DNA from: Oligoflexia bacterium
GTDB lineage: Bacteria; Bdellovibrionota; UBA1018
Direction: 5' to 3'
DNA: 64,000 nucleotides
Assembly (NCBI GenBank): GCA_963758495.1
Contig: CAVWVI010000003.1
Span: forward strand, 544,001-608,000
Shown here: positions 1 to 18,965 of the stretch, piece by piece
Numbering within the stretch: position 1 is the first letter of the stretch
Layout: each line of letters opens with the position of its first letter
Notes under the pieces: model-generated
Seen by the model: only the letters and a program-made list of their open reading frames with translations
Database searches by the model: none
What the model was told of the DNA's origin: nothing
Translations under genes and position numbers: made by a program

Positions 1-482
1 TAGAGTGAGTTAGAAAGCTCCTGAGATTTAAAGCTTTTAATTAAATGAATCGCCTGACTCTGCCAAGCCGCCAAAAAATCATCTGTGGGATGAATTCCTA
101 ATCCTGAAAATGCATAGAGTGAGTTAGAAAGCTCCTGAGCATTAAAACTATTCATCTGACCTAAGGCAGATTTCAGCCAAGATTGAATAAAAGAATCTGG
201 GATAGAATGAATGCGTCGAGCTTTCTTAAGCTTTGCTAAAGAATGTAAACTCATAGCTAGGTTAATTTTATTAAAACGAGGTAATAATGGAGTTACTCTG
301 CCAAACCAGGCCTGAACGTCCTGGTCCTTCACTCTCCATGGATTTTGAGACATTTCACGAATCTCATATGACACATCACTAGGCCGTTCAATACTCCAAG
401 CGGGTGTAAGTAAATTTAAGCCACTTCCCAGTGTAATACACAGAACCAGCAGGGAAATCATTTCCCTCATTAATTTCTTCAT
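1..482 (-). CDS. OPR-like repeat (RAP-family) protein, paralog 2; 5' part only, runs off the window edge
   Basis: ATG at 480-482 reads MKKLMREMISLLVLCITLGSGLNLLTPAWSIERP...FNAQELSNSLYAFSGLGIHPTDDFLAAWQSQ. It is near-identical to the N-terminus of 633..2243, and the upstream DNA is also duplicated. Confidence 0.85.
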   Translation of the reverse strand, partial: MKKLMREMISLLVLCITLGSGLNLLTPAWSIERPSDVSYEIREMSQNPWRVKDQDVQAWFGRVTPLLPRFNKINLAMSLHSLAKLKKARRIHSIPDSFIQSWLKSALGQMNSFNAQELSNSLYAFSGLGIHPTDDFLAAWQSQAIHLIKSFKSQELSNSL

Positions 483-632
483 ATTTTTCGATCTCCCTGA
501 TCTTTTTCTGAGCAATACCAGTGATAATGAAATTAAAGTCTACGCGGATAACGGGAATTTAACAAAAAAATTAAATAGTCTGCGGAATCAGACAAACTTA
601 AAAGCCTGTGTGAAAAAAACTCACAAATCCCA

Positions 633-2243
633 TCACACTCCGTTTTGAACTTGATCCAAAATGCTCTTGAACTCTTTCAGTCTCTCCGTTTGGGATCGAT
701 CCTTTATTCTCTCCCAGTCTCGGTAACTGATTCGTATGACCTTCCAGCCTTCATCACGAAGAATGAAATCAAGCATTTGATCTTGGGCACTCAAGATCTC
801 CTGGCCATTTCTTAGTTGGAAGTGATGCGGACCGTCAAATTGAATAATTAACTTGGAAGAAGGTACTGCAAAATCAACATAGCTCGCAATAGCGTCACTC
901 CAATACTCTTCTCGCAAGTCCTGAGGATAAAGAACTCGAATATCGTTACCAACGGCCTTCTGAGTTTTGGATATTGTGACTCCTTGGGCCTTAAACCTAG
1001 AAGAAGCCTCCTCCAAGCGACGAATGATCGGAAAAGGCATAAGAATTTTGAATCTTGCAAATAAAACTCTCCTAGCTAAAGAAAGCTGATGAAGCTCTGC
1101 AAGATTAAAATCTCCAATTATCTTTAGAGCGCTTTTCTTCCAGGCTTCTAAGTAATGCTCTGTAGGCTGAACACCTAAAACTGAAAATGCATAAATTGAA
1201 TTAGAAAGCTCCTGAGATGTAAAGCTTTCAATAGAATGGATTGCCTGCGTCTGCCAGACCTCTAGGAAGTGATCTTTAGGATGAGTGCCTAAAACTGAAA
1301 ATGCATAGAGTGAATTAGAAAGGCCCTGAGACTTAAAGCTTTCAATAGAATGGATTGCCTGCGTCTGCCAGACCTCTATGAAGTGATCTGTAGGATGAAT
1401 TCCTAATCCTGAAAATGCATAGAGTGAGTTAGAAAGCTCCTGAGAGTTAAAGCTTTTAATTAAATCAATCGCCTGACTCTGCCAAGCCGCTAAAAAATCA
1501 TCTGTGGGATGAATTCCTAATCCTGAAAATGCATAGAGGGAGTTAGAAAGCTCCTGAGAGTTAAAGCTTTTAAATAAATGAATCACCTGACTCTGCCAAG
1601 CCGCTAAAAAATCATCTGTGGGATGAATTCCTAATCCTGAAAATGCATAAATTGAATTAGAAAGCTCCTGAGATGTAAAGCTTTTAATGGAATGAATTGC
1701 CTGACTCTGCCAAGCCGCTAAAAAGTCATCTGCCGGCTGAATTTTTAATACTGAAAATGCATAAAGTGAGTTAGAAAGTCCCTGAGATGTAAAGCTTTTA
1801 ATGGAACGAATTGCCTGCGTCTGCCAGACCTCTAGGAAGTGATTTGTGGGATGAATTCCTAATCCTGAAAATGCATAAATTGAGTTAGAAAGCTCCTGAG
1901 AGTTAAAGCTATTGATTTGACTTAAGGCAGATTCCAGCCAAGATTGTATAAAAGAATCTGAGATGAAATGAATGCGTCTAGCTTTCTTAAGCTTTGCTAA
2001 AGAATGTAAACTCATAGCTAGATTCATTTTACTAAAACGAGGTAATAATGGCGTTGCTCTGCCAAACCAGGCCTGAACGTCCTGGTCCTTCACTCTCCCT
2101 GGATTTTGAGACATTTCGCGAATCTCGTGTGCCAAATTATTAGGCCGTTCAATGCTCCAAGCGGGTGTAAGTAAATTTAAGCTACTTCCCAGTATAATAC
2201 ACAGAACCAGCAGGGAAATCATTCCCCTCACTAATTTTTTCAT
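633..2243 (-). CDS. Secreted OPR-like (38-aa) repeat protein with C-terminal RAP domain
   Basis: Signal-peptide-like N-terminus (MKKLVRGMISLLVLCIILG...TPAWS), 7 near-identical 38-aa repeats, and a RAP-like C-terminus (YVDFAVP...IIQFDGPHHF...LRDEGWKVIRISYRDW). ATG 2243 is preferred over TTG 2276. Confidence 0.85.
   Translation of the reverse strand: MKKLVRGMISLLVLCIILGSSLNLLTPAWSIERPNNLAHEIREMSQNPGRVKDQDVQAWFGRATPLLPRFSKMNLAMSLHSLAKLKKARRIHFISDSFIQSWLESALSQINSFNSQELSNSIYAFSGLGIHPTNHFLEVWQTQAIRSIKSFTSQGLSNSLYAFSVLKIQPADDFLAAWQSQAIHSIKSFTSQELSNSIYAFSGLGIHPTDDFLAAWQSQVIHLFKSFNSQELSNSLYAFSGLGIHPTDDFLAAWQSQAIDLIKSFNSQELSNSLYAFSGLGIHPTDHFIEVWQTQAIHSIESFKSQGLSNSLYAFSVLGTHPKDHFLEVWQTQAIHSIESFTSQELSNSIYAFSVLGVQPTEHYLEAWKKSALKIIGDFNLAELHQLSLARRVLFARFKILMPFPIIRRLEEASSRFKAQGVTISKTQKAVGNDIRVLYPQDLREEYWSDAIASYVDFAVPSSKLIIQFDGPHHFQLRNGQEILSAQDQMLDFILRDEGWKVIRISYRDWERIKDRSQTERLKEFKSILDQVQNGV
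1110..1907 (-). repeat. Seven tandem 114-bp coding repeats (F[NTK]SQ[EG]LSNS[IL]YAFS[GV]L...)
   Basis: Read directly in DNA and protein; period 114 bp / 38 aa. Confidence 0.95.
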
Positions 2244-2420
2244 CTTTTTTGATCCCTCTGATCTTTTTCTGAGCAATACCAGTGATAATGAAATTAAAGT
2301 CTACGTAGATAGGAGAAATTTAGCAAATAATTGCTGAATAATATGCGAAGTTAAGATTCCGACCTATTGCTCTGTTCGCGGACGTCTAGATTGAAACAGT
2401 CCTAACTCTTTACTGAGAAT

Positions 2421-4320
2421 ATTTCAATCCACAGGCCCGCGAAGGGCGCGACCATGCAATTCAATTCGCGAAGCTGATATTAAAAAGTTTCAATCCACGC
2501 GCCCGTGAGGGGCGCGACCAGTCAGAGTAATAGACATCCACTTTTTTCATCGTTTCAATCCACGCGCCCGCGAGGGGCGCGACTTGCTTTAAAACATAGG
2601 CGTCAAGCTGATCAAATGTTTCAATCCACGCGCCCGCGAGGGGCGCGACCCGCTTGCATCAACCGCTTTTTCTCATTTTGAGGTTTCAATCCACGCGCCC
2701 GCGAGGGGCGCGACTCGATATTACTGATGGACATAGGATACATACAATGTTTCAATCCACGCGCCCGCGAGGGGCGCGACGTGTTCCTTCGGATCTTTGG
2801 GCGGGAGAAGCTGACGTTTCAATCCACGCGCCCGCGAGGGGCGCGACAGAGACGATGGCCGCATAGTGAGTTTTGATAATGGTTTCAATCCACGCGCCCG
2901 CGAGGGGCGCGACTCACTAACTCGGACGGGATACATTAACCATAAAGTTTCAATCCACGCGCCCGCGAGGGGCGCGACTTAGCGATGGTGAGCTAGGTGG
3001 ATATATTGAAAAAGTTTCAATCCACGCGCCCGCGAGGGGCGCGACCCGATCAACCCGATCAACTCGCCAATGCTATAAAGTTTCAATCCACGCGCCCGCG
3101 AGGGGCGCGACGTTACGGCGGGAATACTTCAGCTTCGATTGCATGGTTTCAATCCACGCGCCCGCGAGGGGCGCGACGTAGAACAACTGTTACCGGCGGA
3201 TTTTCAAGAGAGTTTCAATCCACGCGCCCGCGAGGGGCGCGACTTTCAGCACTCCTAGACTATTAACTAACTGACTAGTTTCAATCCACGCGCCCGCGAG
3301 GGGCGCGACAGATATAAAACCACGCATGAGCTTCGTAATAAGTGTTTCAATCCACGCGCCCGCGAGGGGCGCGACTCAATCATCTTGGGCAGCTTACGTT
3401 TCGTGAAAGTTTCAATCCACGCGCCCGCGAGGGGCGCGACTTGCCTAGTGACTTAACCCCTCCCCATACTTTAGGTTTCAATCCACGCGCCCGCGAGGGG
3501 CGCGACAGTTGCATAAAAATACGTCATACTGATCCTCGGTGTTTCAATCCACGCGCCCGCGAGGGGCGCGACTTAATTCCTTGGTCTGCCAAAGATTTAA
3601 GCTCAGGTTTCAATCCACGCGCCCGCGAGGGGCGCGACATCGAGTGCAGAACTCATTCAAGCAACCGCTCGAAAGTTTCAATCCACGCGCCCGCGAGGGG
3701 CGCGACCTTCGGGAGGAAATTTACAGGTCAGCGATATCATGTTTCAATCCACGCGCCCGCGAGGGGCGCGACCTCAAGCCGGAAGAGATATAGAAGCAGC
3801 TTGCTAGTTTCAATCCACGCGCCCGCGAGGGGCGCGACGTTTGGGATTTAACTTGCCTAAACTTAGTATCATTGTTTCAATCCACGCGCCCGCGAGGGGC
3901 GCGACCGGTGGAGATGGCGCAGGAGATGTCACCTACGTATGAGTTTCAATCCACGCGCCCGCGAGGGGCGCGACAGGACATCCCGCGTTTTATCTTGTGC
4001 CGCATTCCTGTTTCAATCCACGCGCCCGCGAGGGGCGCGACCGCCGACCATTATCAATGCTTGCGACTTCCGATGACATGTTTCAATCCACGCGCCCCGC
4101 GAGGGGCGCGACCTGAGCGGCGTCAGCGTTATCGTGAGTTAATCATTGCAGTTTCAATCCACGCGCCCCGCGAGGGGCGCGACCCATCGTGATTTACATA
4201 ATGAGCGTTGTAGATCCCAATGTTTCAATCCACGCGCCCGCGAGGGGCGCGACGAAATGAAGTACTGGTGTATGGGCAATTCATGATAGTTTCAATCCAC
4301 GCGCCCGCGAGGGGCGCGAC
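2421..4320 (-). CRISPR. Type I-C CRISPR array, 29 repeats / 28 spacers; repeat GTCGCGCCCCTCGCGGGCGCGTGGATTGAAAC
   Basis: 32-bp repeats counted from 2421 (degenerate trailer copy) to 4289, with spacers of about 33-38 nt. The ATTGAAAC 3' end, the degenerate left copy and the adjacent cas2/leader imply minus-strand transcription. Confidence 0.99.
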
Positions 4321-4490
4321 TCCTTAATGCTAAGATCATAAAATAACACAAAATTTCAAAGACCCATCGCTAATCGCGACTTCTATTTCAATAAAAAACA
4401 AAAAAGAACGACCACCGACGTATAAACTATTGAAATCATTAAAGCGCTAATCACTGGCACTAATGATGTCTCATTGAGGTTAGCGAAAAA
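4321..4490 (-). promoter_or_regulatory. CRISPR leader
   Basis: AT-rich non-coding stretch between cas2 and the first intact repeat, with repeated CGCTAA/TTAGCG motifs. Confidence 0.8.
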
Positions 4491-4781
4491 TTATAAAATT
4501 AACGTGTCCTGGAAATCTGTTGCTTTCTTGGTACCGAAATGCTCTACTTTTGACTTCCAATTGCTTCCAAGATAGTAAAAACGCAAACTGTCTTTTTCTA
4601 CGTCATATTCTTTGAGTAACCTTGATTTTAACATTTCCCATTGGGTTGGGTCCACTTCACATTCAAATACAGAACATTGAACCCTCTGACCGAAATCTTG
4701 ACATGCTCTAGCTATTCGCCTCAATCTGCGACTCCCTGCCAAGTTTTTTGTTTCTACATCATAAGTAATTAACATTAGCAT
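4491..4781 (-). CDS. cas2: CRISPR-associated Cas2
   Basis: MLMLITYDV...RLRRIARACQDFGQRVQCSVFECEV...DSLRFY. Confidence 0.98.
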   Translation of the reverse strand: MLMLITYDVETKNLAGSRRLRRIARACQDFGQRVQCSVFECEVDPTQWEMLKSRLLKEYDVEKDSLRFYYLGSNWKSKVEHFGTKKATDFQDTLIL

Positions 4782-4786
4782 AGGTA

Positions 4787-5818
4787 TTATTTAGATAAAA
4801 ATGCTGGATAATGATTTAAGTCGCCACGAATCGTCCGCGCTAACAGTAGAGCTTGCAAATGAATAACAATACCGATTGGTGCCTTTTCTCCGAGAAAAGG
4901 GTGGATTAATTCTTCCTTTTTTTTCTCTTGCCAAGCAACTAAAATTTCTCTTCTGACTTTATCATCAATTTGTACCGCACCCGTTTCAGAAATTTTAAAT
5001 CCTTCGGAACCAACCTGTTTAAGATTAATCAAACTCAGAACGAGACGATCTCCCAAGACTGCCCGAAATTCCTCCACCAAATCCAGCGCTAAACTAGGTC
5101 GACCTGGGCGGTCTCGATGCAGGAACCCTGCCTGAGGATCTAATCCAACCCCTTCAAGAGCCGAACGACAATCATGAGTAATTAAAGAATATACAAAAGA
5201 AAGCATAGCATTCAGTCTATCTAACGGTGGGCGACGACTACGAGTCTTAAACAAAAAATCTTCCTTTTGGCAGGTAATTAAATTGTTAAAACACGAAAAA
5301 TATTCGTCGGCTGCAGCCCCCTCTATTCCTCGTAATCGATCCAAATCAAATTCCATACCAGACTGCTCCTGCATTCGCCCCATTCGAAGCACAGTGCCCT
5401 TTAAAAGCTCCTTTGAATCACATTCAGAGTAATTTCTTAGATGCCTTTGTAATACCGATCGACTATTAGCAATTTTCGCAGCGACTATTGCTTTTGCAAT
5501 TAAAACAGACCGTTCCGTTAAATCAGATATTCGATATTGTTCCTTACGAAGGAGTATATTTCCAGAAACGGGTCCTTCTACTCGGGCTAAGAATTTACCA
5601 AATTCTGAAAAAAAACTGATCGATACACCACGTTCAGCACAAAAAGCCATCGCATATGGAGAAATCCATATAGGCCCAAATACCATCAACCCCTGAAACA
5701 TGTGAATTGGGAACTGTCCGAGTTTTTTTTCACCGGCCTCTACCACCAAAGTTTCATTTTCCTTACGTACACGTGAATTTTCAGTAGTGATATAGAGAAT
5801 ATTCAACAATTTCTTCAT
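4787..5818 (-). CDS. cas1: Type I-C Cas1
   Basis: MKKLLNILYIT; LRGIEG; RSRRPPLDRLNAMLSF; GFLHRDRPGRPSLALDLVEEFR. Confidence 0.98.
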   Translation of the reverse strand: MKKLLNILYITTENSRVRKENETLVVEAGEKKLGQFPIHMFQGLMVFGPIWISPYAMAFCAERGVSISFFSEFGKFLARVEGPVSGNILLRKEQYRISDLTERSVLIAKAIVAAKIANSRSVLQRHLRNYSECDSKELLKGTVLRMGRMQEQSGMEFDLDRLRGIEGAAADEYFSCFNNLITCQKEDFLFKTRSRRPPLDRLNAMLSFVYSLITHDCRSALEGVGLDPQAGFLHRDRPGRPSLALDLVEEFRAVLGDRLVLSLINLKQVGSEGFKISETGAVQIDDKVRREILVAWQEKKKEELIHPFLGEKAPIGIVIHLQALLLARTIRGDLNHYPAFLSK

Positions 5819-6474
5819 AAATCACCCGGTTTAAAAAGACTTTTAAAATAATGATCTGCTCTATTACTATCAGAATTAGGTTGACATAAATCCATCAAAG
5901 AACAATTGCGACATTTCTTTTCAAAAATTGGCAATGGGGTTCTCCCTGAATGAATCAGTTCATGTACATATTTTGCTACTGTTGCTGTCTCAGTGCGGAT
6001 AGCGTCATTCATCTGTACCCATTCACGACGATTTGGCTGGGCATAATAGAGAGCACCCTTAGAAATGGTAAGACCAAACATTTCTTCAAGACAGATTACT
6101 TGTGCACAAAGTTGAATTCTGTCTATATTAGTGCTTTTTTTTTGACCTCGCTTATATTCGATCGGACATGGTTGCCAAAGCCCCTCTCTTCCAGACAATG
6201 AAACTCCCTGTTGCGATCGAAAAAATTCAACAACATCGGCAATTCCACTTAAACCTAAACTATTTGATCTAATCCTCAAGCTCCGTGCAATAAATAGGTC
6301 TTTCCTTTGTTCAGATTGACCAGTATCTACCTTTTCGTGTAAAAGTTTACCTTGAGTCGTTAGAATATTTTCCGCCCAAACTTGCTCAATGTGAATCAAA
6401 GCACATTGCCTCTCACAAAAGGCGTAATGCTGAAGGGCTGAAATAGGTATAAAATCAACTTCAAAATAATTCAC
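5815..6474 (-). CDS. cas4: Cas4
   Basis: ISALQHYAFCERQCALIH; GIADVVEF; PIEYKRG; QLCAQ; CRNCSLMDLC. Confidence 0.97.
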   Translation of the reverse strand: MNYFEVDFIPISALQHYAFCERQCALIHIEQVWAENILTTQGKLLHEKVDTGQSEQRKDLFIARSLRIRSNSLGLSGIADVVEFFRSQQGVSLSGREGLWQPCPIEYKRGQKKSTNIDRIQLCAQVICLEEMFGLTISKGALYYAQPNRREWVQMNDAIRTETATVAKYVHELIHSGRTPLPIFEKKCRNCSLMDLCQPNSDSNRADHYFKSLFKPGDL

Positions 6475-6506
6475 ATCAGAGATGTTCTAAACAATGGAGT
6501 TAGATG

Positions 6507-7364
6507 TTAATAGCCATTAATCTCTTCAGGAATTAAACCGTCAATCTGATCTATTCTATAAGTACCATCTGTATCCACTTTCAGGCTTCCGTGCACTTTA
6601 GACGAGGCACATTTCCCTTCTTTAGAGGAATGCCTCCACCAAATAACTTTAAGTACTTCCATACTGCCTTCTGGGCGGGCAGAAGAGGCGTCATTTTCAA
6701 ATAACTTCGGAAGGATATTTTTTATGACTTCAGCATCTGTATCGCTGAAACCAGTTCGCACGGCAAGTTGCGGATTCATGCTTCCGTAGGTGAGATAGAC
6801 TCCATAATCAACTCGATGTTTCATACCCATAGTATCAGAAGCACGCTTAGATCCATCACCCTCGCCATTTACACTTTTGGTAATCTGAGTGCTGCTTGTG
6901 CTAATTGGTTCAAGGCTAAATGCGGATTGTATCGTTACGGGGCCACGAATTCCAATAGAGACTCCAGTATCTCCCTCAAAATTGGTTTCTTCTTCACTTT
7001 TATTAATTTTTTTTTCATTTTTTTTGAAGGCGAGCAATTGACCAAATGTTCGAACATCCAACCAATTTTCACATGCTAATTTTGCTGTCTCTATTGAACT
7101 TAATTTTCTTCCAAGTTTTTCTTCTACTCTTTGGCGAATACTTTTACAATCATCAACCTTGCGATCATCAGATTGAACTAAAATAGAATGTCCATTTTCA
7201 AGTAATCGATCACGAATTTTGCGTTTGAGGCACACATCGGTTATCTCACCGAATCCTTCGTAGTTCGTACGAGGACGATTACCATTTAAAGGGTCACCAT
7301 TGGGATTTGCGTTTTTTACTCTAAGAATAATCGCAAAATCAATTTTATTTTGTAACGAACCCAT
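6507..7364 (-). CDS. cas7: Cas7/Csd2 (type I-C)
   Basis: NANPNGDPLNGNRPR; TDVCLKRKIRD; DVRTFG; GIRGPV; DTMGMKH. Confidence 0.97.
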   Translation of the reverse strand: MGSLQNKIDFAIILRVKNANPNGDPLNGNRPRTNYEGFGEITDVCLKRKIRDRLLENGHSILVQSDDRKVDDCKSIRQRVEEKLGRKLSSIETAKLACENWLDVRTFGQLLAFKKNEKKINKSEEETNFEGDTGVSIGIRGPVTIQSAFSLEPISTSSTQITKSVNGEGDGSKRASDTMGMKHRVDYGVYLTYGSMNPQLAVRTGFSDTDAEVIKNILPKLFENDASSARPEGSMEVLKVIWWRHSSKEGKCASSKVHGSLKVDTDGTYRIDQIDGLIPEEINGY

Positions 7365-7765
7365 TATTGCTCTCCTTTTGTGTTTTCAGTCTGTAAGTCG
7401 GATTTTTTTCTGTTCAGGTCCTGTCGTTGACAGTGATATCCTAGAAGAAATTCACCATTCAAGCGGACATCGCTTTGATACTCATTTAATTGAAAGAGAC
7501 AGGTGACCTCAGTCAGAAGATTTTTCATTACCTGTAAAAAAGGAGCCCTCTTTGCTTTGAGTCTGGCTTGGTAGGGTACCAAGGAAGTTTCTATATTCTT
7601 CCAAGTTGAAAAAGGACGATCAGCAAATCGCTGCATCAACTTGAATGCAGTAGTGTCACGGCTCTCACCTCCTACATGGAGAGCCCTTTCCTCAAGATGA
7701 TCAGCAATAGCAAGTAGTCGCCCATAGAGGTAGTCTCGGCTTGTTCGATCTGGTTCAAGGGCCAT
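7364..7765 (-). CDS. cas11: Cas11c small subunit, internal in-frame translation from cas8c
   Basis: AAGGAG-7nt-ATG GCC CTT GAA (MALEPDRTSRDYLYGRLLA), in frame inside cas8c, 133 aa. Matches the known hidden-Cas11 arrangement of type I-C. Confidence 0.8.
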   Translation of the reverse strand: MALEPDRTSRDYLYGRLLAIADHLEERALHVGGESRDTTAFKLMQRFADRPFSTWKNIETSLVPYQARLKAKRAPFLQVMKNLLTEVTCLFQLNEYQSDVRLNGEFLLGYHCQRQDLNRKKSDLQTENTKGEQ

Positions 7766-9289
7766 TTGATAACTCCTTTTTTCTTTAGAATTGCGTTCAT
7801 AATAACCTTTGAAAAGTGCGCAAGCAATGCCAAGAGTTTGTTCCCATTCTCTAGGATCTTTTATTCCTACGCGATTACAAGCCCTTCGGAAGACAGACTC
7901 AACCAGATCACGTGGAATTGGGGCTGAATCTAAAATACAAGGCAAAATCCGTTGAATTGTATGTTTTTTTAATTTGTCATCAATACGTTTCGAGAAACAT
8001 GCCTCTGCAATACTACTTGGACTTGGAGCGAAAATTTGCCATAGAATACCTGTTTTCCCTTTTGCTTTCGGATCCAGGAGATGCCAGGAAAAATCAGAGT
8101 GCCAATTTTCGATCCGTCGAAGAAATTCCGAGCTTTGCAATTCCCGGTAATAAACGATAGCTATTCTACCATCACTTGCTGAATCAAGACCTATCACTAC
8201 GATATCCTGAAGCTCTCCTAGTTTCGCCTTATATCCAGCTATCTTCTTATTCAGTTTTAATGCGAAGGTTTGGCCAAAATCAGATTCATTTTTTGAATCG
8301 CTATCCAGTGATTCTCCAAAAAGAATGGAAGTATCAGCAAAGGGATCTGGGATATCTTGGCCACCAGTCGCCCATGAAACAAACACAAGATTCCCGAATC
8401 GCTGGGACTGGCGTTTAATAAGCCACTGAAGCGCATTGTGGATTTTTTGGGAGGCTTCGCTAGACATGCCTACAGCTTGGCTGGCAACACTAAATCTGCC
8501 TCTAAATGTATAGCCCGTACTATCATTAGAAGAGATAAGTTTAGCTCCATCACCACTATGCCGAATTCGACCGGGGTGTTTTGTCGCCAATACTCCCACA
8601 TTCCCAGTTACAAAGCATAAACCCTTCTCGACACACTCAAGCGTTGAGTTATATAGAGTCCAAGCGTCGAACAATGACGGATCTTCCCAGGTAGTAGAGT
8701 TTGGATTTCCTGGTTCCTCTACTCTCCATCTAACAAATGCATCCCCTTGATCCATAGAGGTGGGAAGGACGCTGAAAATTTCATTCTTAAAGACCGCTGG
8801 CTTTTCGCTTTTTGGATTCCACATACAAGCGAGGGTAGCAGGTGAGTCCGTATGAAGAACATTGCAGCCGATTAAGTCAGCTACAACCGTTCCCTTGCTA
8901 ATATATTTAAAAACAGCATTTACTTTGGGGTGATTCGCAACTGGCGAAGACGCCCAGGCTTGTAACTGCTTTGAATATGAGTCGAAGTAAGAATCCTTCC
9001 TTCCACCAAAAGTCTTGTAGTCCTTCGCTATGTATTGAATTTTATCAGAAAGAGGATATGGTGCGTCATTAGCAGTTCGAGTCGCAGACTTTTCTGTGGT
9101 TGGAATAATCGTCTCTATCTTGAGAATGACTTTAGCAGTGTTAAAATTGCCATCTAGATCAATAACAATCTCAATATGAGCATTCTGCAACTTATGGGCG
9201 ACAGGTACTAATATGTTCTTTCCTGTGCTTGTATGAGTAGTATTTGAAACTAAATTGAAGGTTTCATATAATTTTTGGCTCCAACTCAT
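7364..9289 (-). CDS. cas8c: Cas8c/Csd1 large subunit
   Basis: MSWSQKLYET; AKLISSND; SQKIHNALQWL; RDYLYGRLLAIA; FLLGYHCQR; position between cas5 and cas7. Confidence 0.96.
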   Translation of the reverse strand: MSWSQKLYETFNLVSNTTHTSTGKNILVPVAHKLQNAHIEIVIDLDGNFNTAKVILKIETIIPTTEKSATRTANDAPYPLSDKIQYIAKDYKTFGGRKDSYFDSYSKQLQAWASSPVANHPKVNAVFKYISKGTVVADLIGCNVLHTDSPATLACMWNPKSEKPAVFKNEIFSVLPTSMDQGDAFVRWRVEEPGNPNSTTWEDPSLFDAWTLYNSTLECVEKGLCFVTGNVGVLATKHPGRIRHSGDGAKLISSNDSTGYTFRGRFSVASQAVGMSSEASQKIHNALQWLIKRQSQRFGNLVFVSWATGGQDIPDPFADTSILFGESLDSDSKNESDFGQTFALKLNKKIAGYKAKLGELQDIVVIGLDSASDGRIAIVYYRELQSSEFLRRIENWHSDFSWHLLDPKAKGKTGILWQIFAPSPSSIAEACFSKRIDDKLKKHTIQRILPCILDSAPIPRDLVESVFRRACNRVGIKDPREWEQTLGIACALFKGYYERNSKEKRSYQMALEPDRTSRDYLYGRLLAIADHLEERALHVGGESRDTTAFKLMQRFADRPFSTWKNIETSLVPYQARLKAKRAPFLQVMKNLLTEVTCLFQLNEYQSDVRLNGEFLLGYHCQRQDLNRKKSDLQTENTKGEQ

Positions 9290-9996
9290 TCAACCACTCC
9301 GTCGTCAGAGGTGATTGAAAAATTACATCCAATTTCAAACTTTTTCGGCATCATCTCGCGTACCAGGTGACGAACTTTACACACTTCAGGACGATCAAAT
9401 TGAATAATCCCACTCTTCATCACAGGAGAGAAAAGGCGCTTATAGAGCTTATTTTCTCCGTTTTCATCAGGATAATCAAAACCGTGAAACATCAGACCAA
9501 ACCCGAGTTCATCCAAATCATCGTAATCACTCTTGCCGGTACCAAATTCACAAGGCTCCACATAAGCCTGACAGTCTCTTGTCCCCAGGTAAACGTCCAG
9601 GCTTCCACCTTTATCAAGCTTTCTTAAGGCAATCTGGTAGTGCTTACCATCGTTGCGATCTTTCTCCAATTCTGAACGAAAGAGATTCCATTCGAAGTGG
9701 GCTTGAACTTGGTATTCAACATCCGCCAAGAATGTATAAATAGATAACGAATTTCCCCCTCCATAGTTCAAAGGTTTAGTCCCTTTCGTTTGGGTTCGAA
9801 TTTTCTTCATCACGCGAACCTTATCAATGACCCAAATAAAAGTGGGTTTCCAATAGATAGATTTGGCTATGCCTTTTAAAGCTTCATAAGTAGGAATGTG
9901 GTAAGAGCACTTCTCTCCCCCAATTTTTGTCAAAGGATCTGTAAAAAGAGCATGAGGACCCCAAACTTTGAATTCAATACAATTTTTCGGTTTCAT
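9286..9996 (-). CDS. cas5: Cas5 (type I-C, Cas5d)
   Basis: ALFTDPLTKIGGEKCSYHIPTYEALKGI..SIYWKP; YLGTRDC. ATG at 9996 is preferred over TTG 10008. Confidence 0.96.
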   Translation of the reverse strand: MKPKNCIEFKVWGPHALFTDPLTKIGGEKCSYHIPTYEALKGIAKSIYWKPTFIWVIDKVRVMKKIRTQTKGTKPLNYGGGNSLSIYTFLADVEYQVQAHFEWNLFRSELEKDRNDGKHYQIALRKLDKGGSLDVYLGTRDCQAYVEPCEFGTGKSDYDDLDELGFGLMFHGFDYPDENGENKLYKRLFSPVMKSGIIQFDRPEVCKVRHLVREMMPKKFEIGCNFSITSDDGVVE

Positions 9997-10016
9997 AGGG
10001 TATTCCAAAGTCTACT

Positions 10017-12500
10017 TTAACAATTTATAAAACTCATTGAGTTGACCATTTCGAGACTAATGCCGAAATCATCACTATAGTACTGTTTATCCAAGTAATA
10101 GATACCTGTGCTTTTTTGAATTTCCTGCATAGCACCCTCCTGAGAAAATTTCAAAATTAAATTTGGATACAGATTTACAGTATAGCGCTGAGCTTTTCTA
10201 AGAAGCTCAAATTGTTTTTCTACTTGAAAGGCACCGCATAGTTCAGTTACAAGGGCTTCGCCTTCTTTGCCATACGGTACAATAACTCCTTGTGTGGAGA
10301 TATCCATGGCTTTGAATTCCTTTCCCGCAGACATGAAGGAATGTCTTAAAAAGATCGCAGGCGCACAGTCCTTTGTTCTCTTATGTTCTGAAACAGAAAT
10401 CGAATTTTCTCCCAATAAATTCAAGAGTCGATCGGAACGTCCGATATAACCTGAACTTTGATCTCCAATTGGGTAATCCATCTCTCCTCTTCGATCAAAA
10501 AAATTATACTGATAGTATCGTTGCATTGCACTTGGACTAAGAAGACTATTACCTAGTAGAGATGGGCTGCTCTCAAATTCACGTAAGATGCGATCAGTAT
10601 GCTTTTGTCCTGTAGAGATATCTTCAAGCGATTTAATATTCTCTTGAGCGGCGTTTACTACATAAACTCTGCCCACTTTTATTCGACCGTTTCGGTTACA
10701 GCGCCCAGCAGCTTGGGCTATGGAATCCAATCCTGCGCTACAGCGAATCACAGAATTAAAATCTAAATCCACCCCTGCTTCAATCAATTGTGTACTAATA
10801 CATAACACTGGATCTCCCCTTTCCAGCATTGCACGAATCTGATTCAGAATAACCAACCGGTGAGCTGGGCACATCGCTGTACTGAGATGAAAGACAGGAA
10901 ACATCGAAGGCGCTTTGCAGAGCTGAAAAAGGGCTTGCGCCATCTGTTTTGTATTTACAATGACAAGGCAACTATTCGCCTGGGAAATCTGATCCAAGGC
11001 CAATTTCGCAATTTCTTCATTGGTCCAACCTATAGACCTAGTGTAATTAAGAACTTCCACCCGTTTGAGGTCATCAAAAAGACTCCGGACATCTGACATT
11101 ATTTCGTTGCGATCGTCATATTTCATCATCCCTTTTGTGGGTTCAACTTGATTTAGAAGTGGTTGCGTCGCGGTACATAGTACAACCGTGCTCCCACATT
11201 GCTCCACGAGAAAATTCACGGCATTGTTAAACAAATGAATGCAGCGAATGGGCAGAGTCTGAATTTCATCAAAGATAATCAACGAATTGGCCAATTGATG
11301 TAGGCGTCGAGCCCCACGGGTACCACCACTAAATAGAGACTCGAGCAATTGAACGCTCGTGGTATAAATCACTGGAGCATCCCAGTTTTCAGTGAGGATC
11401 TTGGCCTTCCAGGTCTGCTCTTCGGGAGTCAGATTAGAATGATGTTCCAAAACAATCAAACTAGGTTCAACGTTGTCGGATGTTGGGTCCAAAATGTTAC
11501 GAACAGTTTCGGCATTTTGATCAATGATAGTGGTAAAAGGTATAACAAAAATGATGCGGTCAAGATGATGTTTTTTTGCGTGATGCAAGCCAAAGCGGAG
11601 GCTAGCAAGGGTTTTCCCTCCACCTGTAGGAACAGTCAGAGTAAAAATCCCTTTGCCCCTTTGAGCACTTTCGAAACAACCCTGTGAGATTTTTCGCCGA
11701 ATTTCATCAATTCTGTTTTGAATCGGAATATTCTCCAAATATTTTTCAAGTCGTTCAATCAAGAGATCCCACTGGGGATATGAGCCATTGTAGCACCTAA
11801 GTGCAGCCTTCGGATTTTCGAAGTCTGCACTATCAATTCGATCCCCGTCAATAAGACAACTGAAGAGAAAACGAACTAACAGACCTTCCTGAATTGCGCG
11901 GGTTTGGCGAGACTGGTTGTATTTTTGAATAGATGCAATGACCTTTTTTAAGGGAATTAATAAGTCTTCAGAGTCCAAAATACGCTGAACCTCTCGAAAT
12001 ATTTCTGGATCGGCTTTTTCAGTGACTTCTATTAAGTGCGTTTTTTTATCATCTTTCTGAATTCTGCGTTCCCAATTATTCTCTCCACTAGGCTTCAGAC
12101 AGTCAATAAGCCCAGAATGATGTGAGACAATACAGAGAGTGAGTATTTGCTCCAAAAATTTCTCGGCAGGGGTGTCTTTCCCCTTGAACTGCTGCCGTAT
12201 ATACTGAGCCCCAGCAGTGGAATGATCAATCTTGCCCTTCAGTCCTGAGGCATCAACATATTCCTCATCCTCATCAGGATTGAGTAAACCAACCGCAGAT
12301 TGGATATATGATTGGAATTCTTGACTGAATTTTCCAAGATCATGTAACAATCCAACCAGTGCGCCATAGTCGCCAAGGCCTATCTTGGCCCCGAATATCC
12401 GACTTTTTGCACTCACTCCTTGTAGGTGGCTAATGACAGATTGATTTGTCCCATCCTTGCGTGCATGCGCAATATAATTATCTTGGTTAGTCTTACTCAC
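10017..12500 (-). CDS. cas3: Cas3 HD nuclease-helicase
   Basis: HLQGV, LHDLGK, SHHSGL, IDGD HD motifs; VPTGGGKT, DEIQ, TATQP, QAAGRCNR helicase motifs. Confidence 0.98.
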   Translation of the reverse strand: MSKTNQDNYIAHARKDGTNQSVISHLQGVSAKSRIFGAKIGLGDYGALVGLLHDLGKFSQEFQSYIQSAVGLLNPDEDEEYVDASGLKGKIDHSTAGAQYIRQQFKGKDTPAEKFLEQILTLCIVSHHSGLIDCLKPSGENNWERRIQKDDKKTHLIEVTEKADPEIFREVQRILDSEDLLIPLKKVIASIQKYNQSRQTRAIQEGLLVRFLFSCLIDGDRIDSADFENPKAALRCYNGSYPQWDLLIERLEKYLENIPIQNRIDEIRRKISQGCFESAQRGKGIFTLTVPTGGGKTLASLRFGLHHAKKHHLDRIIFVIPFTTIIDQNAETVRNILDPTSDNVEPSLIVLEHHSNLTPEEQTWKAKILTENWDAPVIYTTSVQLLESLFSGGTRGARRLHQLANSLIIFDEIQTLPIRCIHLFNNAVNFLVEQCGSTVVLCTATQPLLNQVEPTKGMMKYDDRNEIMSDVRSLFDDLKRVEVLNYTRSIGWTNEEIAKLALDQISQANSCLVIVNTKQMAQALFQLCKAPSMFPVFHLSTAMCPAHRLVILNQIRAMLERGDPVLCISTQLIEAGVDLDFNSVIRCSAGLDSIAQAAGRCNRNGRIKVGRVYVVNAAQENIKSLEDISTGQKHTDRILREFESSPSLLGNSLLSPSAMQRYYQYNFFDRRGEMDYPIGDQSSGYIGRSDRLLNLLGENSISVSEHKRTKDCAPAIFLRHSFMSAGKEFKAMDISTQGVIVPYGKEGEALVTELCGAFQVEKQFELLRKAQRYTVNLYPNLILKFSQEGAMQEIQKSTGIYYLDKQYYSDDFGISLEMVNSMSFINC

Positions 12501-13765: not shown

Positions 13766-14443
13766 CTATCCCTTCATAGCATCTAAATTGTCTTCAATGC
13801 TCTTGTCTGGCCTTGTCCGTAAGTAGAGATTTCCAGATCTTGAATGCGCAATCACTGCGTCCACTCTTCCTTGACGAGTCAGTGCAATACCCTGAATTTT
13901 TGAAATCCATCCCATCGTTTCAATCTGATAGGAAACGATCGTTTTCTTTTTGTTTCTTTGAACCCCAATAATTTTAAGTTTATCCGTGCATTCTTCGATT
14001 ACGCCCTTTTGCTGGCCCTCCATTTGTTCAATGGCCTTCCAGAGCATTTCAAATTCATTAGGACTGAAATCTTTGATTTTTTTGTCTCCCTTGACTCCAA
14101 TCTTCCCACGTAAAAATCGCACGTAATTCTCTGGATCATTACCATCTTCTTTTGGAGCATACACTTTTATCAATGCTTTAAGATCTTTCGTTCCATGCTC
14201 ATTTTTCAAGCAATCAAGATGTGCCTGATGGCCCGTTTTATAATCTGGGAATACCGCAAATCCCCCTGCTTTCCCAATAGCACCATTTCTTTTACTGACT
14301 TTCCCTACAACAAGATTGCCAGGATTATTATTTCTCCAGGTCCAATTGCCTTTTGAAAAACAAAACTTCCTGCCATCTTCAGATTCGTAAATTACAGAGT
14401 GCCTAGGTCCAGGACCTGCTTTAACAAATTTGGGTTCACTCAT
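13766..14443 (-). CDS. Lysozyme-like (RNNNPGN motif) domain fused to DUF3892-like C-terminal domain
   Basis: WRNNNPGNL...GFAVFPD...YAPKEDGNDPENY resembles phage/lysozyme-like hydrolases. The C-terminus YLRTRPDKSIEDNL is DUF3892-like. Confidence 0.6.
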   Translation of the reverse strand: MSEPKFVKAGPGPRHSVIYESEDGRKFCFSKGNWTWRNNNPGNLVVGKVSKRNGAIGKAGGFAVFPDYKTGHQAHLDCLKNEHGTKDLKALIKVYAPKEDGNDPENYVRFLRGKIGVKGDKKIKDFSPNEFEMLWKAIEQMEGQQKGVIEECTDKLKIIGVQRNKKKTIVSYQIETMGWISKIQGIALTRQGRVDAVIAHSRSGNLYLRTRPDKSIEDNLDAMKG

Positions 14444-14895: not shown

Positions 14896-15372
14896 CTAAA
14901 TTCGGCCGCTGAATGGAATTTCTTTGTCAAACACCGTCAAAACTTTGTTTATTTCCTTATCTGAGGGTAATTCGACACCCTTTGGAGCAGCAGCATCTAC
15001 CTGATGAACCTGTATTCCTTTTTGCCGAATGTGAAACGCAATTCGTTGCCATCGTTGTCTCCAAAGGCATTCTCGACGTTTGTATTCAGCCACCTCAAGC
15101 TTGAGCCTCTCAACCTCACCCGCGAGTTCCTGATTTTCTTGAGTAGCTTCTTGTTGGCTTTTAATGGCCCCCCTGCCCAGAGACTTCTTAGCATAATCGT
15201 AAGCTGCTTTAATTTCTGACTTAGCTTGAAGTGACTGTCGACTGAACCCGAACCTCTCTCCAAGGGCTTCCCAGGTTAGTTTCGATCCAAATTGTCCGGC
15301 TGCCCAACGGTCGAGATCAGAAACAATGGTAGAAACATCAGATTTGGTCATTTTGCGAAATCGTTTAGTCAT
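14896..15372 (-). CDS. Small HTH/coiled-coil recombination accessory protein (GinD/TnpC-like)
   Basis: KLTWEALGERFGFSRQSL HTH-like segment plus coiled coil; fourth gene of the recombinase operon. Confidence 0.65.
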   Translation of the reverse strand: MTKRFRKMTKSDVSTIVSDLDRWAAGQFGSKLTWEALGERFGFSRQSLQAKSEIKAAYDYAKKSLGRGAIKSQQEATQENQELAGEVERLKLEVAEYKRRECLWRQRWQRIAFHIRQKGIQVHQVDAAAPKGVELPSDKEINKVLTVFDKEIPFSGRI

Positions 15373-17368
15373 GGATAGAGTCCTCCAGATACTGATAAGG
15401 GCTGAAGTCTGAGATCCCGTTATCGATCAACTGTTGGGAAAGTACTTTGAACTTCTTATCGTTGTGAGCAATCCAATCGACGCTCTTTTTCGGCTTGTCG
15501 GTTTTTGCCTGTTTCTCTGCGGTTTCTCTTGCAATCAAAGTCATCGCGTATTGGCGCTTGAGTTCTTCAATACGGCCATCATCGTTCTTGACCCACACAT
15601 AGTCTTTACAATCCGCAGAGCACTGAAGATGCCTCTCACAAGGAGTTTGGGCAAAATTATGCACGCACATTCCAGTGCCAACATCATGGACGGCATTAAT
15701 CCGTGCCTTTAAAAAAGCATCCTGCACCTGAGCTGGGACATATTTCAGTTGTTCCGCAACTTGCCCTTGAACGAGCCCTTTCTTAATATCTTCTCGCAAC
15801 ATCAAAGCCCGCTTTTCTCGGCTCGTATGCTGATAGGCTTTAGTGTCTCTTGGATTTTTCCGGCCGAACCACTCAGTTTGCAGAAGGTCAGTCAACCCGC
15901 CTTCATCGAGTAAGGTATTGAGGGTATGACGAAAATGATGAGTTGTAAAATCAGCCTCCATAGAATACTCCGTATACTCTTTGGCCAAAGTCTCAAAAGA
16001 TCTCAAAAAAGTAGTCATCATGGAATGCGTACAAAAGGTAGCAATCCAGCGTTTTTCACGTCCAGTTGTTGAGAAACCAACAAATTTCAAAAGAAGAAGA
16101 TCTTTAAGAAAATAGTGGCGACCGCACTGATCGACGTGAACAGGCGCAATGAATTGGGGCGAAAAATCCTTTTCACAGTAGGCCGTTATCCCCTCCTTTG
16201 TAAGAAAATACTGTGACCTCTTCACACCTGAAACCGATGATAAGACCTCTTTGCCAAGATAACCATTTTGGCTAAACCATCCAGCTGTACTAATCGCCTT
16301 TAAGGGGAGACCTACCGCTTCAAGCTGGTGCCTATTAAATTTTTGGTCATCAGAGACGTCTGCGAGAAAAGTCAAATCAGGGCCTTTTACTTTTTCCATG
16401 ATAGCCGCTGTCTGCCTTGCAGGTGCACAAATCTGATCTAGCTCTGTGATGACATCACGTACAATTCCCACAACCTTTGTCGGCAAGAATAGACGTCGCC
16501 GAGGAGTAAATGTATCCCCAGAGGAACGCTTCCGAGGGAAATACTCAATATAAAATCTACCTTCGTTATCACATTCAACCTTTTGATAAGGAAGTAAAGC
16601 TATCTCACTAAAACGCCGCCCCAAACAGGCCAGGAGAACCAACACTAATACGTAGAAACGATACTTATGATCATGAGGTACTCGTTGGTAAAGTTGTCCT
16701 AAAATCCGAAATACGGCAGGCTCCACCAATTTCGATGACTTTGTTTCTGATGCTTCTGGATCGTCAAGGCGTTTATGAGCCAAGCCGCCTACGTTTTCGG
16801 GACGCTTCATTCCTGTAAATCTGTATCCTAAGTGAGTCTTGCAGAGACGATTTGCGTCGCAGTACCCCGCAAATTCATGAACTGCTTTGTGTAAATTGTA
16901 GCCGACTCCATCGCTATAGTGTGATGTAATCAGTCGACACGCGTAATCAAGATGCTCAGGCGTGAGTTGAAAAAAACCCTGACTCTGCTCAGAGCCAGCG
17001 AAAGCCACGTACCCTATTGCTGTAATAAAAAATCTCTGGCTGGTTGCAGTTTGATTTCCACGATGAAAACGAAGAACAAAGAGTGCCTTCGCCACTTCAA
17101 GCCATACCCCCGTTAGCTCAGCCCCTCCCAATTTTGGTGCGAATTGAAAATTGAGCGTCGTCGCTTTGCAGTTTTTGCCCGTAATCTTGACTAAGCGCCC
17201 CCTTGCAATCGTCCATAAGGAAGATTCCCAATTCACATCTTCAAATCCTTCCAGTTTAAGCATCTTTGCTCTTTCACACAGGGAGCGAAAATTTTCCGAA
17301 CAGTCTTTCTCTAAACGGCTTATAAATTGGACGACGTTAGTTCTTCCACTAGTAATTGGCCTATCCAT
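15365..17368 (-). CDS. Tyrosine recombinase 3 (GinC-like)
   Basis: LGRRFSEI, HHFRHTLNT, FGRKNPRDTKAY, and Cys-rich C-terminus (GMCVHNFAQTPC...C..C). ATG 17368 overlaps the upstream stop. Confidence 0.85.
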   Translation of the reverse strand: MDRPITSGRTNVVQFISRLEKDCSENFRSLCERAKMLKLEGFEDVNWESSLWTIARGRLVKITGKNCKATTLNFQFAPKLGGAELTGVWLEVAKALFVLRFHRGNQTATSQRFFITAIGYVAFAGSEQSQGFFQLTPEHLDYACRLITSHYSDGVGYNLHKAVHEFAGYCDANRLCKTHLGYRFTGMKRPENVGGLAHKRLDDPEASETKSSKLVEPAVFRILGQLYQRVPHDHKYRFYVLVLVLLACLGRRFSEIALLPYQKVECDNEGRFYIEYFPRKRSSGDTFTPRRRLFLPTKVVGIVRDVITELDQICAPARQTAAIMEKVKGPDLTFLADVSDDQKFNRHQLEAVGLPLKAISTAGWFSQNGYLGKEVLSSVSGVKRSQYFLTKEGITAYCEKDFSPQFIAPVHVDQCGRHYFLKDLLLLKFVGFSTTGREKRWIATFCTHSMMTTFLRSFETLAKEYTEYSMEADFTTHHFRHTLNTLLDEGGLTDLLQTEWFGRKNPRDTKAYQHTSREKRALMLREDIKKGLVQGQVAEQLKYVPAQVQDAFLKARINAVHDVGTGMCVHNFAQTPCERHLQCSADCKDYVWVKNDDGRIEELKRQYAMTLIARETAEKQAKTDKPKKSVDWIAHNDKKFKVLSQQLIDNGISDFSPYQYLEDSIHD

Positions 17369-18965
17369 GAACAACCCCCTCCTTACATTGTTCAATGACT
17401 TGAGCGACTGCTAGAATCACTTCATCCAATTGAATCCCCAAACGTCCCTGCTCGTATTTTTCTAACCTTTCCTTTCGGCCCATCAGGAGACAATCCAAAA
17501 CATGCTCATGATCAGCCTGCCGATACGGCTGGAACTTAGGGCATAGGTAACAAGAAAAAGGGGGATCTAAATGACAGAGTGATTTTTCACCGCAGATCCC
17601 GATATCAGTTTGATCTAAGGGATTTACTTCGCTCACAAACGCCAAGTGCTTGTCGTCTCGCTCTCCGTTGATGGCTTCGTGCTGGCTTTCAATTACTATC
17701 CCTCGGAATAATTGGAGGTATTTTGAAAAACCTTTCGCCATTGCTTTGTCCAAATGCTCAACAATGGTTCCGGCAAGTTCAAAATAGACTTGTACGTGCT
17801 GTGTGTCAGTATGGTCTAAAATCCGAGCCAACTCAGCTCTACTGATACCTTCCGCTGCAAGACCTGTCGCGAGAGTGTATCTCAAGCGACGAGTGCAGAT
17901 TTGGAGCAGCTCGCCTGTTAATGGTGAAATAATTTTATGACGGCGAACGAACCCAACTATTAGACGGGTAATATCAAAACTGGTCATATTGAAAATATCA
18001 CCAAAAGAACCAGCAGCAAGTGCAGAACGGTTTTTCTCAATATTGATAAAGATTGGTTTTTCTACTTCAATTGTATTCCCCTCATGTATGGCAACGGTAG
18101 AAATACTTTTGTTTGCTTCAATAAGTTCAAGCACATAATCTGCAAATTGGGGCTCTAAATATTCATCTAACAAGTCATCCCGAGGGTTGAGGCCACGCTT
18201 CTTAATTCGTGGCATGCGGATCACATAACAAGGCGGTTGCCCATCGAGAGCTAAATTCATCAAATCTGAAGCCTTAAGATAGGTCAAATTCGCTGGATTG
18301 CGACCCAATGCTATTGAAAGAGCAAGCGCCGCCTTTTGTTGCAAATGGGAAAGTTTGGAACTTTTATCCTGCCGAAGAGCGTCTAGAAGTAGAGGGAGTT
18401 CCAATGACCGATGAAGTGGGCCCTTATCTTTATCTTCTAAACGAACAGCCTCCCCTTTTGGATTTCCAGGAATAACCATTCCTTCAAGTTCCATTGCATA
18501 TGCTGGACAAAATCCTAGTTCGGGATAATTCTCTGCACACCAAAGATACCACTGTATTGGACGATATAAGGCCCATAAGCGGTGCTTTGAACGAGCTTGC
18601 GAAATGGAGTCCTCTACCAATCTTATAAGACTATTTTTTAGGACTTCGGTATCGAGAGAGTTCGATAGTTGATATCTTCCTTGAGCCTTTAGAAATTCAA
18701 ACCAAATCCCTCTATAGGCAATGAACCCAGCATGGGTTGAAGTAAATTGAATTCTATCTTGCACATACCTTTTTGCGCTCCACCGAAGGAAGGAGTTTTG
18801 AATATCAGAAAATACGACTGAGCCATTTGTCTCCGTGGGGCATGGCAGGTGCCATGTATCGGAGACACTATCAACTACGAGACCTTCCCTCGTTATGATC
18901 GTAGTAGGCAATTCAGCCCAGCCATTTCCGGTAATGAGTTGATTTAAGGTTTGATGAGCACTCAT
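17361..18965 (-). CDS. Tyrosine recombinase 2 (GinB-like)
   Basis: LGRNPANL, RRLRYTLAT, LDHTDTQHVQVY, and C-terminal GICG...C..PPFSCYLCPKF. Confidence 0.88.
   Translation of the reverse strand: MSAHQTLNQLITGNGWAELPTTIITREGLVVDSVSDTWHLPCPTETNGSVVFSDIQNSFLRWSAKRYVQDRIQFTSTHAGFIAYRGIWFEFLKAQGRYQLSNSLDTEVLKNSLIRLVEDSISQARSKHRLWALYRPIQWYLWCAENYPELGFCPAYAMELEGMVIPGNPKGEAVRLEDKDKGPLHRSLELPLLLDALRQDKSSKLSHLQQKAALALSIALGRNPANLTYLKASDLMNLALDGQPPCYVIRMPRIKKRGLNPRDDLLDEYLEPQFADYVLELIEANKSISTVAIHEGNTIEVEKPIFINIEKNRSALAAGSFGDIFNMTSFDITRLIVGFVRRHKIISPLTGELLQICTRRLRYTLATGLAAEGISRAELARILDHTDTQHVQVYFELAGTIVEHLDKAMAKGFSKYLQLFRGIVIESQHEAINGERDDKHLAFVSEVNPLDQTDIGICGEKSLCHLDPPFSCYLCPKFQPYRQADHEHVLDCLLMGRKERLEKYEQGRLGIQLDEVILAVAQVIEQCKEGVVHG

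Follow-up and report, generated by a model that had tools for sequence, protein, structure and literature searches.

The locus raises the question of what a bacterial protein that joins a signal-peptide-like N-terminus, an array of near-identical repeats, and a RAP domain might do, and in whose cells. It lies at the start of the window, by which we mean the whole analyzed stretch of 64,000 nucleotides from an Oligoflexia bacterium (assembly GCA_963758495.1, here genome G000). A sequence-only reading had proposed a TALEN-like, exported binder or nuclease aimed at host or prey RNA; it mentioned neither the tandem paralog, gene B, which begins at window position 482, nor the adjacent type I-C CRISPR-Cas locus. 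We see about an even chance that genes A and B encode exported, repeat-coded RNA binders, and probable nucleases, that act against a eukaryotic host. The parts of gene A and the portion of gene B inside the window are as follows.

633..2243, minus strand: gene A, with predicted signal peptide, cap, seven OPR-type repeats, cap, and RAP domain (Pfam, AlphaFold2)
2154..2243, minus strand: predicted Sec signal peptide, residues 1 to 30 (hydropathy heuristic; matched in gene B and in the L009 relative)
1908..2153, minus strand: N-terminal helical cap with one degenerate repeat, residues 31 to 112, net basic (12 K/R, 7 D/E)
1110..1907, minus strand: seven 38-residue (114-nt) two-helix repeats, residues 113 to 378, net acidic (11 K/R, 22 D/E)
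984..1109, minus strand: C-terminal degenerate repeat and linker helices, residues 379 to 420, net basic (8 K/R, 3 D/E)
636..983, minus strand: RAP or Vsr-like alpha-beta domain, residues 421 to 536 (Pfam RAP at 684-845)
1..482, minus strand: 5' part of the tandem paralog, gene B (P0002), 458 residues in all, continuing to G000:C3:543106

Gene A (P0001) is read as an open reading frame of 536 residues with its ATG at 2243, and the place of this start codon is matched by the relative in locus L009, which is labelled Bdellovibrionia and comes from the same family as G000. The Pfam RAP family (PF08373) matches gene A with 41.3 bits against a cut-off of 24.2 (E 1.5e-10) and gene B with 44.0 bits, confirming the RAP domain proposed earlier, and FAST_1 matches gene A with 34.2 bits against 27.4 (E 2.4e-8); a DUF559 match lies slightly below its Pfam cut-off. 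Compared by eye, the gene A repeats agree with 7 of the 10 named residues of the Paulinella OPR motif; in gene A the PPPEW element is present only as P-x-x-x-F, a common variant of it (PMC12691811). Gene A encodes a genuine member of the RAP-domain proteins, whose repeats are of OPR type in their length and two-helix form.

Several family assignments were tried and rejected. FAST_1 and RAP are matched but FAST_2 is absent among the gene A Pfam matches at E<=1, and the product may be said to resemble FASTK proteins in its working without being classed in that family. The proposed profile check for RAP and for OPR/DUF1601 succeeded for RAP but not for DUF1601 (PF07671), which gives no match at E<=1 in gene A and none in gene B, while the relatives P0005 and P0091 do match it. 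The XopAD/SKWP effector profile is hit weakly, with 27 bits against a cut-off of 2000, and the repeat is 38 residues long versus 42 in that family. Pfam finds no TALE repeat in gene A, and the sole FHIPEP gene of the genome belongs to a flagellar cluster, which leaves the TALEN comparison as a functional analogy rather than a family relation.

The AlphaFold2 model of the gene A product, built on a 20-row alignment, has a pLDDT of 93 and folds into a helix-pair solenoid through the array, followed by an alpha-beta tail. The top Foldseek matches are RESC6, mitoribosomal RAP/HPR proteins, an algal ATP synthase subunit (6rd4_2), and FASTKD4, with RESC6 being the sole significant PDB match by sequence (E 2e-11). 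The RAP domain alone superposes with a T. gondii RAP protein (Z 13.4, rmsd 2.5, 113 residues aligned) and with FASTKD4 (Z 13.0, rmsd 2.1, 109 aligned), followed by Vsr (Z 9.9, rmsd 2.7, 102 aligned) and I-Bth0305I (Z 9.4); NGO0050 could also be aligned. By structure alignment of the model, the domain has a Vsr-like alpha-beta nuclease fold; the earlier reading had given RAP a PD-(D/E)xK-like fold.

Residues D457 and H474 are invariant in the aligned relatives, 20 of 20 in one alignment and 15 of 15 in another, and we take them, from motif spacing, to correspond to D51/H69, the Vsr pair named in PMC11879112. Gene A carries Q468 at a site that is occupied by Glu in 71 of 138 RAP domains and by Gln in 25. 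FASTKD4, in which Asn replaces the His of the Vsr pair, is inactive (PMC11879112), whereas FASTKD5 cleaves RNA in vitro, possibly with a key residue, D429, outside its RAP domain (PMC12242768). Catalysis by RAP proteins is real in FASTKD5, absent in FASTKD4, and unsettled overall (PMC5449608, PMC11879112, PMC12242768, PMC12687428). Judging from the kept Asp/His pair, the gene A product is probably a nuclease; the net acidic repeats, Q468, the inactivity of FASTKD4, the possible location of the FASTKD5 key residue outside RAP, and the presence of the fold in an ATP synthase subunit count against A and B as exported RNA binders and nucleases.

The alternative that survives best is an exported RNA binder without nuclease activity, which would mask, stabilize, or remodel a host RNA in the manner of FASTKD4 and many algal OPR proteins. 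It could appeal to FASTKD4, which shares the fold and is inactive (PMC11879112, PMC12687428), to the Gln in place of the usual Glu, and to the characterized OPR proteins, most of which stabilize or translate RNAs according to the available text of PMC8635915. However, the Asp and His are invariant in gene A's group while inactive FASTKD4 has lost the His, and we regard this alternative as unlikely.

Export of the gene A product is probable, judging from its N-terminus. The signal-peptide-like start claimed earlier was found again by a hydropathy heuristic: residues 1 to 30 comprise a basic start (+3), a hydrophobic core with a best 10-residue Kyte-Doolittle mean of 3.5, and an A-W-S motif at 28-30, with cleavage predicted after S30. 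The N-terminal length and the W-S end are kept in gene B and in the L009 relative while the core has diverged, and the c-region is conserved in A, B, L009, and P0003, all with signal-like starts by the same heuristic. The hydropathy filter flagged 21 starts among 232 proteins, of which several resemble bacterial signals (P0001-3, P0005, P0121, P0139, P0143) and others resemble algal presequences.

G000 has four secretins, one of them within a cluster that reads as type II secretion from its gene order and ORF sequences. Neither a T6SS marker nor an injectisome was found in G000, its single FHIPEP gene being flagellar, and this counts against host-cell delivery. The sole TrbI of the genome sits in an integrase-bounded element of conjugative look at G000:C3:296000-306500; further along the same contig, tandem near-identical transposase-like genes lie at C3:402196-405356.

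Whether the recipient would be a eukaryotic host or bacterial prey, which the earlier reading had left as either, can be approached through the rest of the genome. G000 has 14 RING matches, the most of the 127 genomes of its class, and its family relative G117, the other carrier of this subfamily, has 8; any RING match occurs in 10 of the 127, and RING proteins occur in 9 of the 75 genomes of the G000 family, a spread which suggests a eukaryote-directed lineage within the Bdellovibrionota. Ankyrin candidates number 94 in G000, the class maximum, and 57 in G117, with only 37 scored for each; the 85 ankyrin matches of G000 are spread over at least 32 genes, and the majority of these genes have a signal-like start. 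As G000 and G117 are kin, their shared richness in RING and ankyrin proteins is not independent. A scan of 20 chosen G000 proteins returned one RING-IBR and one WWE-RING-Deltex-PARP protein. The gene content of G000, with RING, IBR, and Deltex-PARP proteins that carry signal-like starts, favors a eukaryotic host over bacterial prey. ATP/ADP translocase and ubiquitin gave no match in G000, and the positive controls gave none either.

The signal-bearing, eukaryote-like set of G000 also includes ankyrin-RING proteins that carry Cys/His motifs at the C-terminus, and the PARP protein is in full a WWE-RING-Deltex-RWD-PARP protein; examples of the set lie at C1:146136-148730 (L097), C4:41195-42997 (L105), C3:745315-747771 (L102), and C2:78015-80531 (L100). 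Two near-identical secreted proteins combine ankyrin repeats, a Cys-rich region, and an FGE-sulfatase domain (G000:C3:532533-534155 and C2:113049-114671), the first of them encoded 10 kb from gene A. An RCC1-repeat protein with a predicted signal peptide, encoded at window 22734-24128, is a further eukaryote-like export candidate.

The gene might instead encode a predation enzyme that is exported into bacterial prey and cuts prey RNA, a reading for which the Bdellovibrionota lineage and the type IV, Tad, and flagellar genes present in G000 can be cited, as well as genome G048, with three copies of the gene, one ankyrin match, and no RING match. More generally, G048, G031, and G029, whose OPR-RAP genes are more distant, lack RING matches (ankyrin matches 1, 6, and 1) and eight RING-positive genomes of the class lack the OPR-RAP gene, both of which count against the link to eukaryotes. 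However, OPR-RAP matches occur in only 5 of the 127 class genomes, in 1 of the 74 other genomes of the family, and in 4 of the 401 phylum genomes sampled, and this rarity argues against a predation enzyme. RING-type proteins indicate a eukaryotic partner, albeit with ubiquitin unmatched, as was its control, and relatives of the gene are found in Rickettsiaceae, which live intracellularly in eukaryotes. We find predation, too, unlikely, and place it below the nonnuclease binder.

The reading of an RNA binder directed at a eukaryotic host depends further on the repeats. The gene A array consists of seven repeats of exactly 38 residues (residues 113-378, window 1907-1110), without indels, in agreement with the seven repeats of about 38 residues reported from the sequence; degenerate units flank it at residues 70-112 and 379-420, as had also been noted. 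Tandem Repeats Finder gives a period of 114 nt, 6.6 copies, 86% matches, and a score of 928. Pairwise identity between repeats is 21 to 33 of 38 residues, with a mean of 26.6. The repeats had been described as varying at only a few positions, namely 2, 5, 10, and 15, and these are indeed the sole variable columns within positions 1-16 (helix A); over the full repeat, however, 24 of the 38 columns vary. In the AlphaFold2 model, the two helices span positions 3-16 and 22-38. Read in order, the residues at positions 2 and 5 are NE, TG, TE, NE, NE, KG, and TE in gene A, and NE, KE, TG, KE, and KG in the five repeats of gene B.

The comparison of the two paralogs, with repeats paired from the C-terminal end and the pairing of B1 and B4 ambiguous, shows that 7 of 10 sites at positions 2 and 5 differ versus 13 of 180 elsewhere (Fisher p 5e-6), and that all five repeat pairs differ at position 2 or 5. 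Repeats A5 and B3 are identical in all 108 nt outside codons 2 and 5, and A4 and B2 in 107. Together with the difference in repeat number, seven against five, this bears out the modular variation between paralogs that had been foreseen.

The same positions stand out in homologues. From 245 sequences, with 9 left out as close kin, 12 proteins had enough near-identical repeats, and position 5, the most variable position across them, differs in 59% of near-identical repeat pairs (seen in 11 of the 12 proteins), followed by position 2 with 47% and position 37 with 42%; the comparison set of 18 comparably variable positions has a mean of 27% (permutation P 2.8e-4), the repeat pairs not being independent in these statistics. 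An earlier motif-anchored pass, in which 13 of 232 proteins were used, also picked positions 5 and 2. Position 3 was rejected as a hypervariable site, having reached 0.37 in the motif-anchored alignment but only 0.24 with a profile that ignores position 3. Positions 10 and 15 are not raised across homologues (0.12 and 0.25 versus 0.59 at position 5), so of the positions originally put forward only 5 and 2 are kept as candidate specificity sites, candidates by their variation. The draft code of the algal OPR proteins reportedly depends on the residue that follows the conserved Gln, which would correspond to position 5 here. A pooled test at the DNA level, with groups that hold one pair only, serves as support alone. 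Variability at 2 and 5 on a homogenized backbone is the pattern that would be expected of specificity residues, a pattern that does not indicate the bound ligand, and the net acidic repeats between basic caps count somewhat against simple RNA binding.

The ligand could thus also be DNA, making the protein a truly TALEN-like binder or nickase. The matches to the DNA enzymes Vsr and I-Bth0305I and the weak XopAD/SKWP match point that way, but the nearest folds are the RNA-associated RAP and FASTK proteins, with Z of 13 and above, and HPR proteins bound RNA and not DNA in the available part of PMC12691811; we judge a DNA target improbable. Equally improbable is a protein-binding scaffold in which the variation at positions 2 and 5 follows a protein partner or host recognition. 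Its acidic repeats and the ATP synthase subunit with the same fold would suit such a role, whereas the conserved nuclease-type residues and the basic caps flanking the array would not.

The genome, 3.66 Mb long and 92% complete, contains no copy besides A and B, and both are intact. Local alignments of both ends delimit the duplication as follows.

627..2347, minus strand: duplicated unit, gene A with about 100 bp upstream

On the gene B side, the corresponding upstream segment starts at about 584. Both an assembly artefact and eukaryotic contamination were rejected, the copies differing throughout (94 of 112 and 136 of 156 residues identical) and sitting on a 1.68-Mb contig with bacterial genes around them. 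Among sequencing runs, no RNA run was listed as containing the genes, and one DNA run (share 0.09) was uninformative, yielding a single 170-nt contig on the repeats plus CRISPR fragments, and a promoter scan gave 1 site versus 4.6 expected.

The variation might also be drift and gene conversion in a recent acquisition that serves no selected function, as its patchy distribution and the different locus of the G117 copy would allow; with both copies intact, and with amino acid changes clustering in two codons while adjacent codons are identical, we consider this very improbable. The G117 gene (L009/L089), the closest relative with context, is split over two contig ends. In its short flanks of 3 kb and 1.5 kb, the neighbors are, as judged from their sequences, an M3 peptidase on one side and a DTW-type gene on the other. 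The glycosyltransferases that flank this block in G117 adjoin each other in G000, far from the window.

Upstream of gene A follows the CRISPR array.

2487..4320, minus strand: type I-C CRISPR array, 28 copies of the repeat motif and 27 spacers of 33-39 nt

The array is followed by cas2, cas1, cas4, cas7, cas8c, cas5, and cas3 up to window position 12500, so that the type I-C locus is complete at 2487-12500, and degenerate CRISPR repeats are seen at about 2420-2480. The spacers have no full-length match elsewhere in G000, with two matches of 16-17 nt. Beyond the cas genes, a 225-residue ORF at 13766-14443 ends in a DUF3892 domain, and its N-terminal part may resemble a phage-type lysozyme motif. 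Three consecutive tyrosine-integrase-family genes and a small ORF occupy 14896-20152, immediately before ssb; together they look like the border of a mobile island, one that could have brought in the cas genes. The array beside gene A is probably incidental and without a functional part, and the G117 relative has other neighbors, so the link to CRISPR is not conserved in G117, the only close relative open to this check. Least probable of all is a CRISPR accessory acting on crRNA or invader RNA, for which gene A lies suitably near, 140-240 bp from the array end and on the strand of the cas genes, but against which stand its signal-like start, the lack of an array in the available flanks of the G117 gene, a PADLOC search with nothing better than E 0.01, and a crude array test on 55 loci, which flagged three, none of them shown to be CRISPR.

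The reading that we prefer would place A and B, as OPR/HPR-RAP (FASTK-like) proteins, in a secreted arsenal directed at eukaryotes. They would be exported by Sec, cleaved after S30, and released by type II secretion, the use of both systems being our supposition, and would then have to reach host RNA, the weakest step. By analogy with OPR and FASTK biology, the repeat superhelix would bind single-stranded RNA, each repeat taking up roughly one base that is chosen by positions 5 and 2 where helix A begins, and the RAP domain may use its Vsr-type Asp/His pair to cut or destabilize the bound RNA. Organellar or other host RNAs would be the likeliest substrates. Duplication, gain or loss of repeats, and change at positions 2 and 5 could have given A and B differing specificities. 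If the proteins are exported to a eukaryote, they would represent a class of bacterial effectors in which organelle-type repeats are turned on host RNA, and they would speak for a eukaryote-directed way of life in a lineage of the Bdellovibrionota.

A phmmer search with gene A gave 3455 representatives at E<=0.001, and the closest relatives are P0003 (44-53%, with a signal-like start), the G117 gene, Rickettsiaceae-like proteins, Orientia RAP proteins, and many algal proteins. In the FastTree phylogeny, A, B, P0003, and P0109 group together (SH 99) within a 41-row group that holds all named Rickettsiaceae and most Bdellovibrionota rows (SH 90), a grouping with long branches that is too weak for naming a donor. 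Tandem OPR-RAP pairs recur in L008, labelled Bdellovibrionales and of the same class as G000, and in L010. Other Bdellovibrionota genes of this type are L008/L093 (G048, where a tandem pair is joined by one additional copy and a short RAP remnant, with positions 2 and 5 variable), L085 (G031, an 856-residue signal-bearing form with degenerate repeats), L086 (G029), and L121 (G214). Homogeneous OPR arrays with variable positions 2 and 5 are also seen in L010-L014 and L017, from a Rickettsiaceae genome with 13 matches, Orientia, and a Kistimonas genome; as repeats often break assemblies, these copy numbers are likely undercounts. A single-protein scan confirmed 0 of 53 candidates on genome contigs and 0 of 38 on viral contigs.

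Among known proteins, the Orientia RAP proteins (OtRAP of PMC7729196; P0013, P0022, P0101) and Rickettsiaceae L010 are alike in their near-identical 38-residue repeats followed by RAP, in the Q-x-D-G-x-x-H motif, and in variable positions 2 and 5, at 33-37% identity to gene A; they differ in having no Sec-type signal by our heuristic and in belonging to another phylum. An Orientia OPR-RAP protein is shown in the available part of PMC7729196, where its architecture is compared with bacterial effectors, and the searchable papers yielded no characterization of these proteins. The Coxiella OPR / DUF1601-RAP proteins (PMC8635915) share bacterial OPR-type repeats, but gene A has no DUF1601 match; an Atlas cluster carrying RAP and DUF1601 is 99% bacterial. 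The bacterial OPR-RAP architecture is thus already known from Orientia and Coxiella (PMC7729196, PMC8635915). RAP was found in few prokaryotes (PMC8190603). The literature search, from which most subscription journals fell outside, returned nothing on signal-peptide-bearing bacterial OPR-RAP proteins or Bdellovibrionota copies; the main text of the Legionella effector atlas, as far as available, does not mention RAP or OPR (PMC11696984), and the accessible portions of PMC13126933, PMC5541062, and PMC11652630 give no repeat positions. The predicted signal peptide together with paralogs that differ in their variable residues is new within the literature searched.

The Chlamydomonas NCL proteins NCC1 and NCC2 likewise have 7-12 OPR repeats, RAP, and tandem paralogs, and a single substitution switches the RNA target of an NCL protein (PMC8635915), but they are nuclear encoded and chloroplast targeted, with degenerate repeats. 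Human FASTKD4 and FASTKD5, the apicomplexan RAP/HPR proteins, and trypanosome RESC6 share the helical repeats and RAP fold, and differ as eukaryotic organelle proteins of 13-17% structural identity that lack homogeneous repeats. According to PMC12691811, neither the HPR code nor the role of the OPR motifs is established. Part of the reason is that the eukaryotic repeats are degenerate; A and B, which share backbones and differ mainly at positions 2 and 5, would permit a direct test of a code. They could also test the RNase role of a RAP domain with an intact Asp/His pair, a point open for the FASTK family (PMC12687428).

TAL effectors and TALENs are alike by functional analogy, with homogeneous repeats, two variable residues, and, in TALENs, a nuclease-fold tail. 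TALE repeats are 33-35 residues long, vary at the adjacent residues 12-13, target DNA, and belong to proteins delivered by type III secretion; the gene A product differs from them in repeat length and fold. Tentatively, and as a lesser possibility than the general reading, A and B might form a natural programmable bacterial ribonuclease in which positions 5 and 2 of the homogeneous repeats recognize the host RNA that the RAP domain then cuts, re-aimed in an arms race through changes in two codons of each repeat. If so, TAL effectors would have a counterpart that acts on RNA, work on the OPR code would gain a ready scaffold, and the Bdellovibrionota lineage would be one that attacks eukaryotic cells or lives in them.
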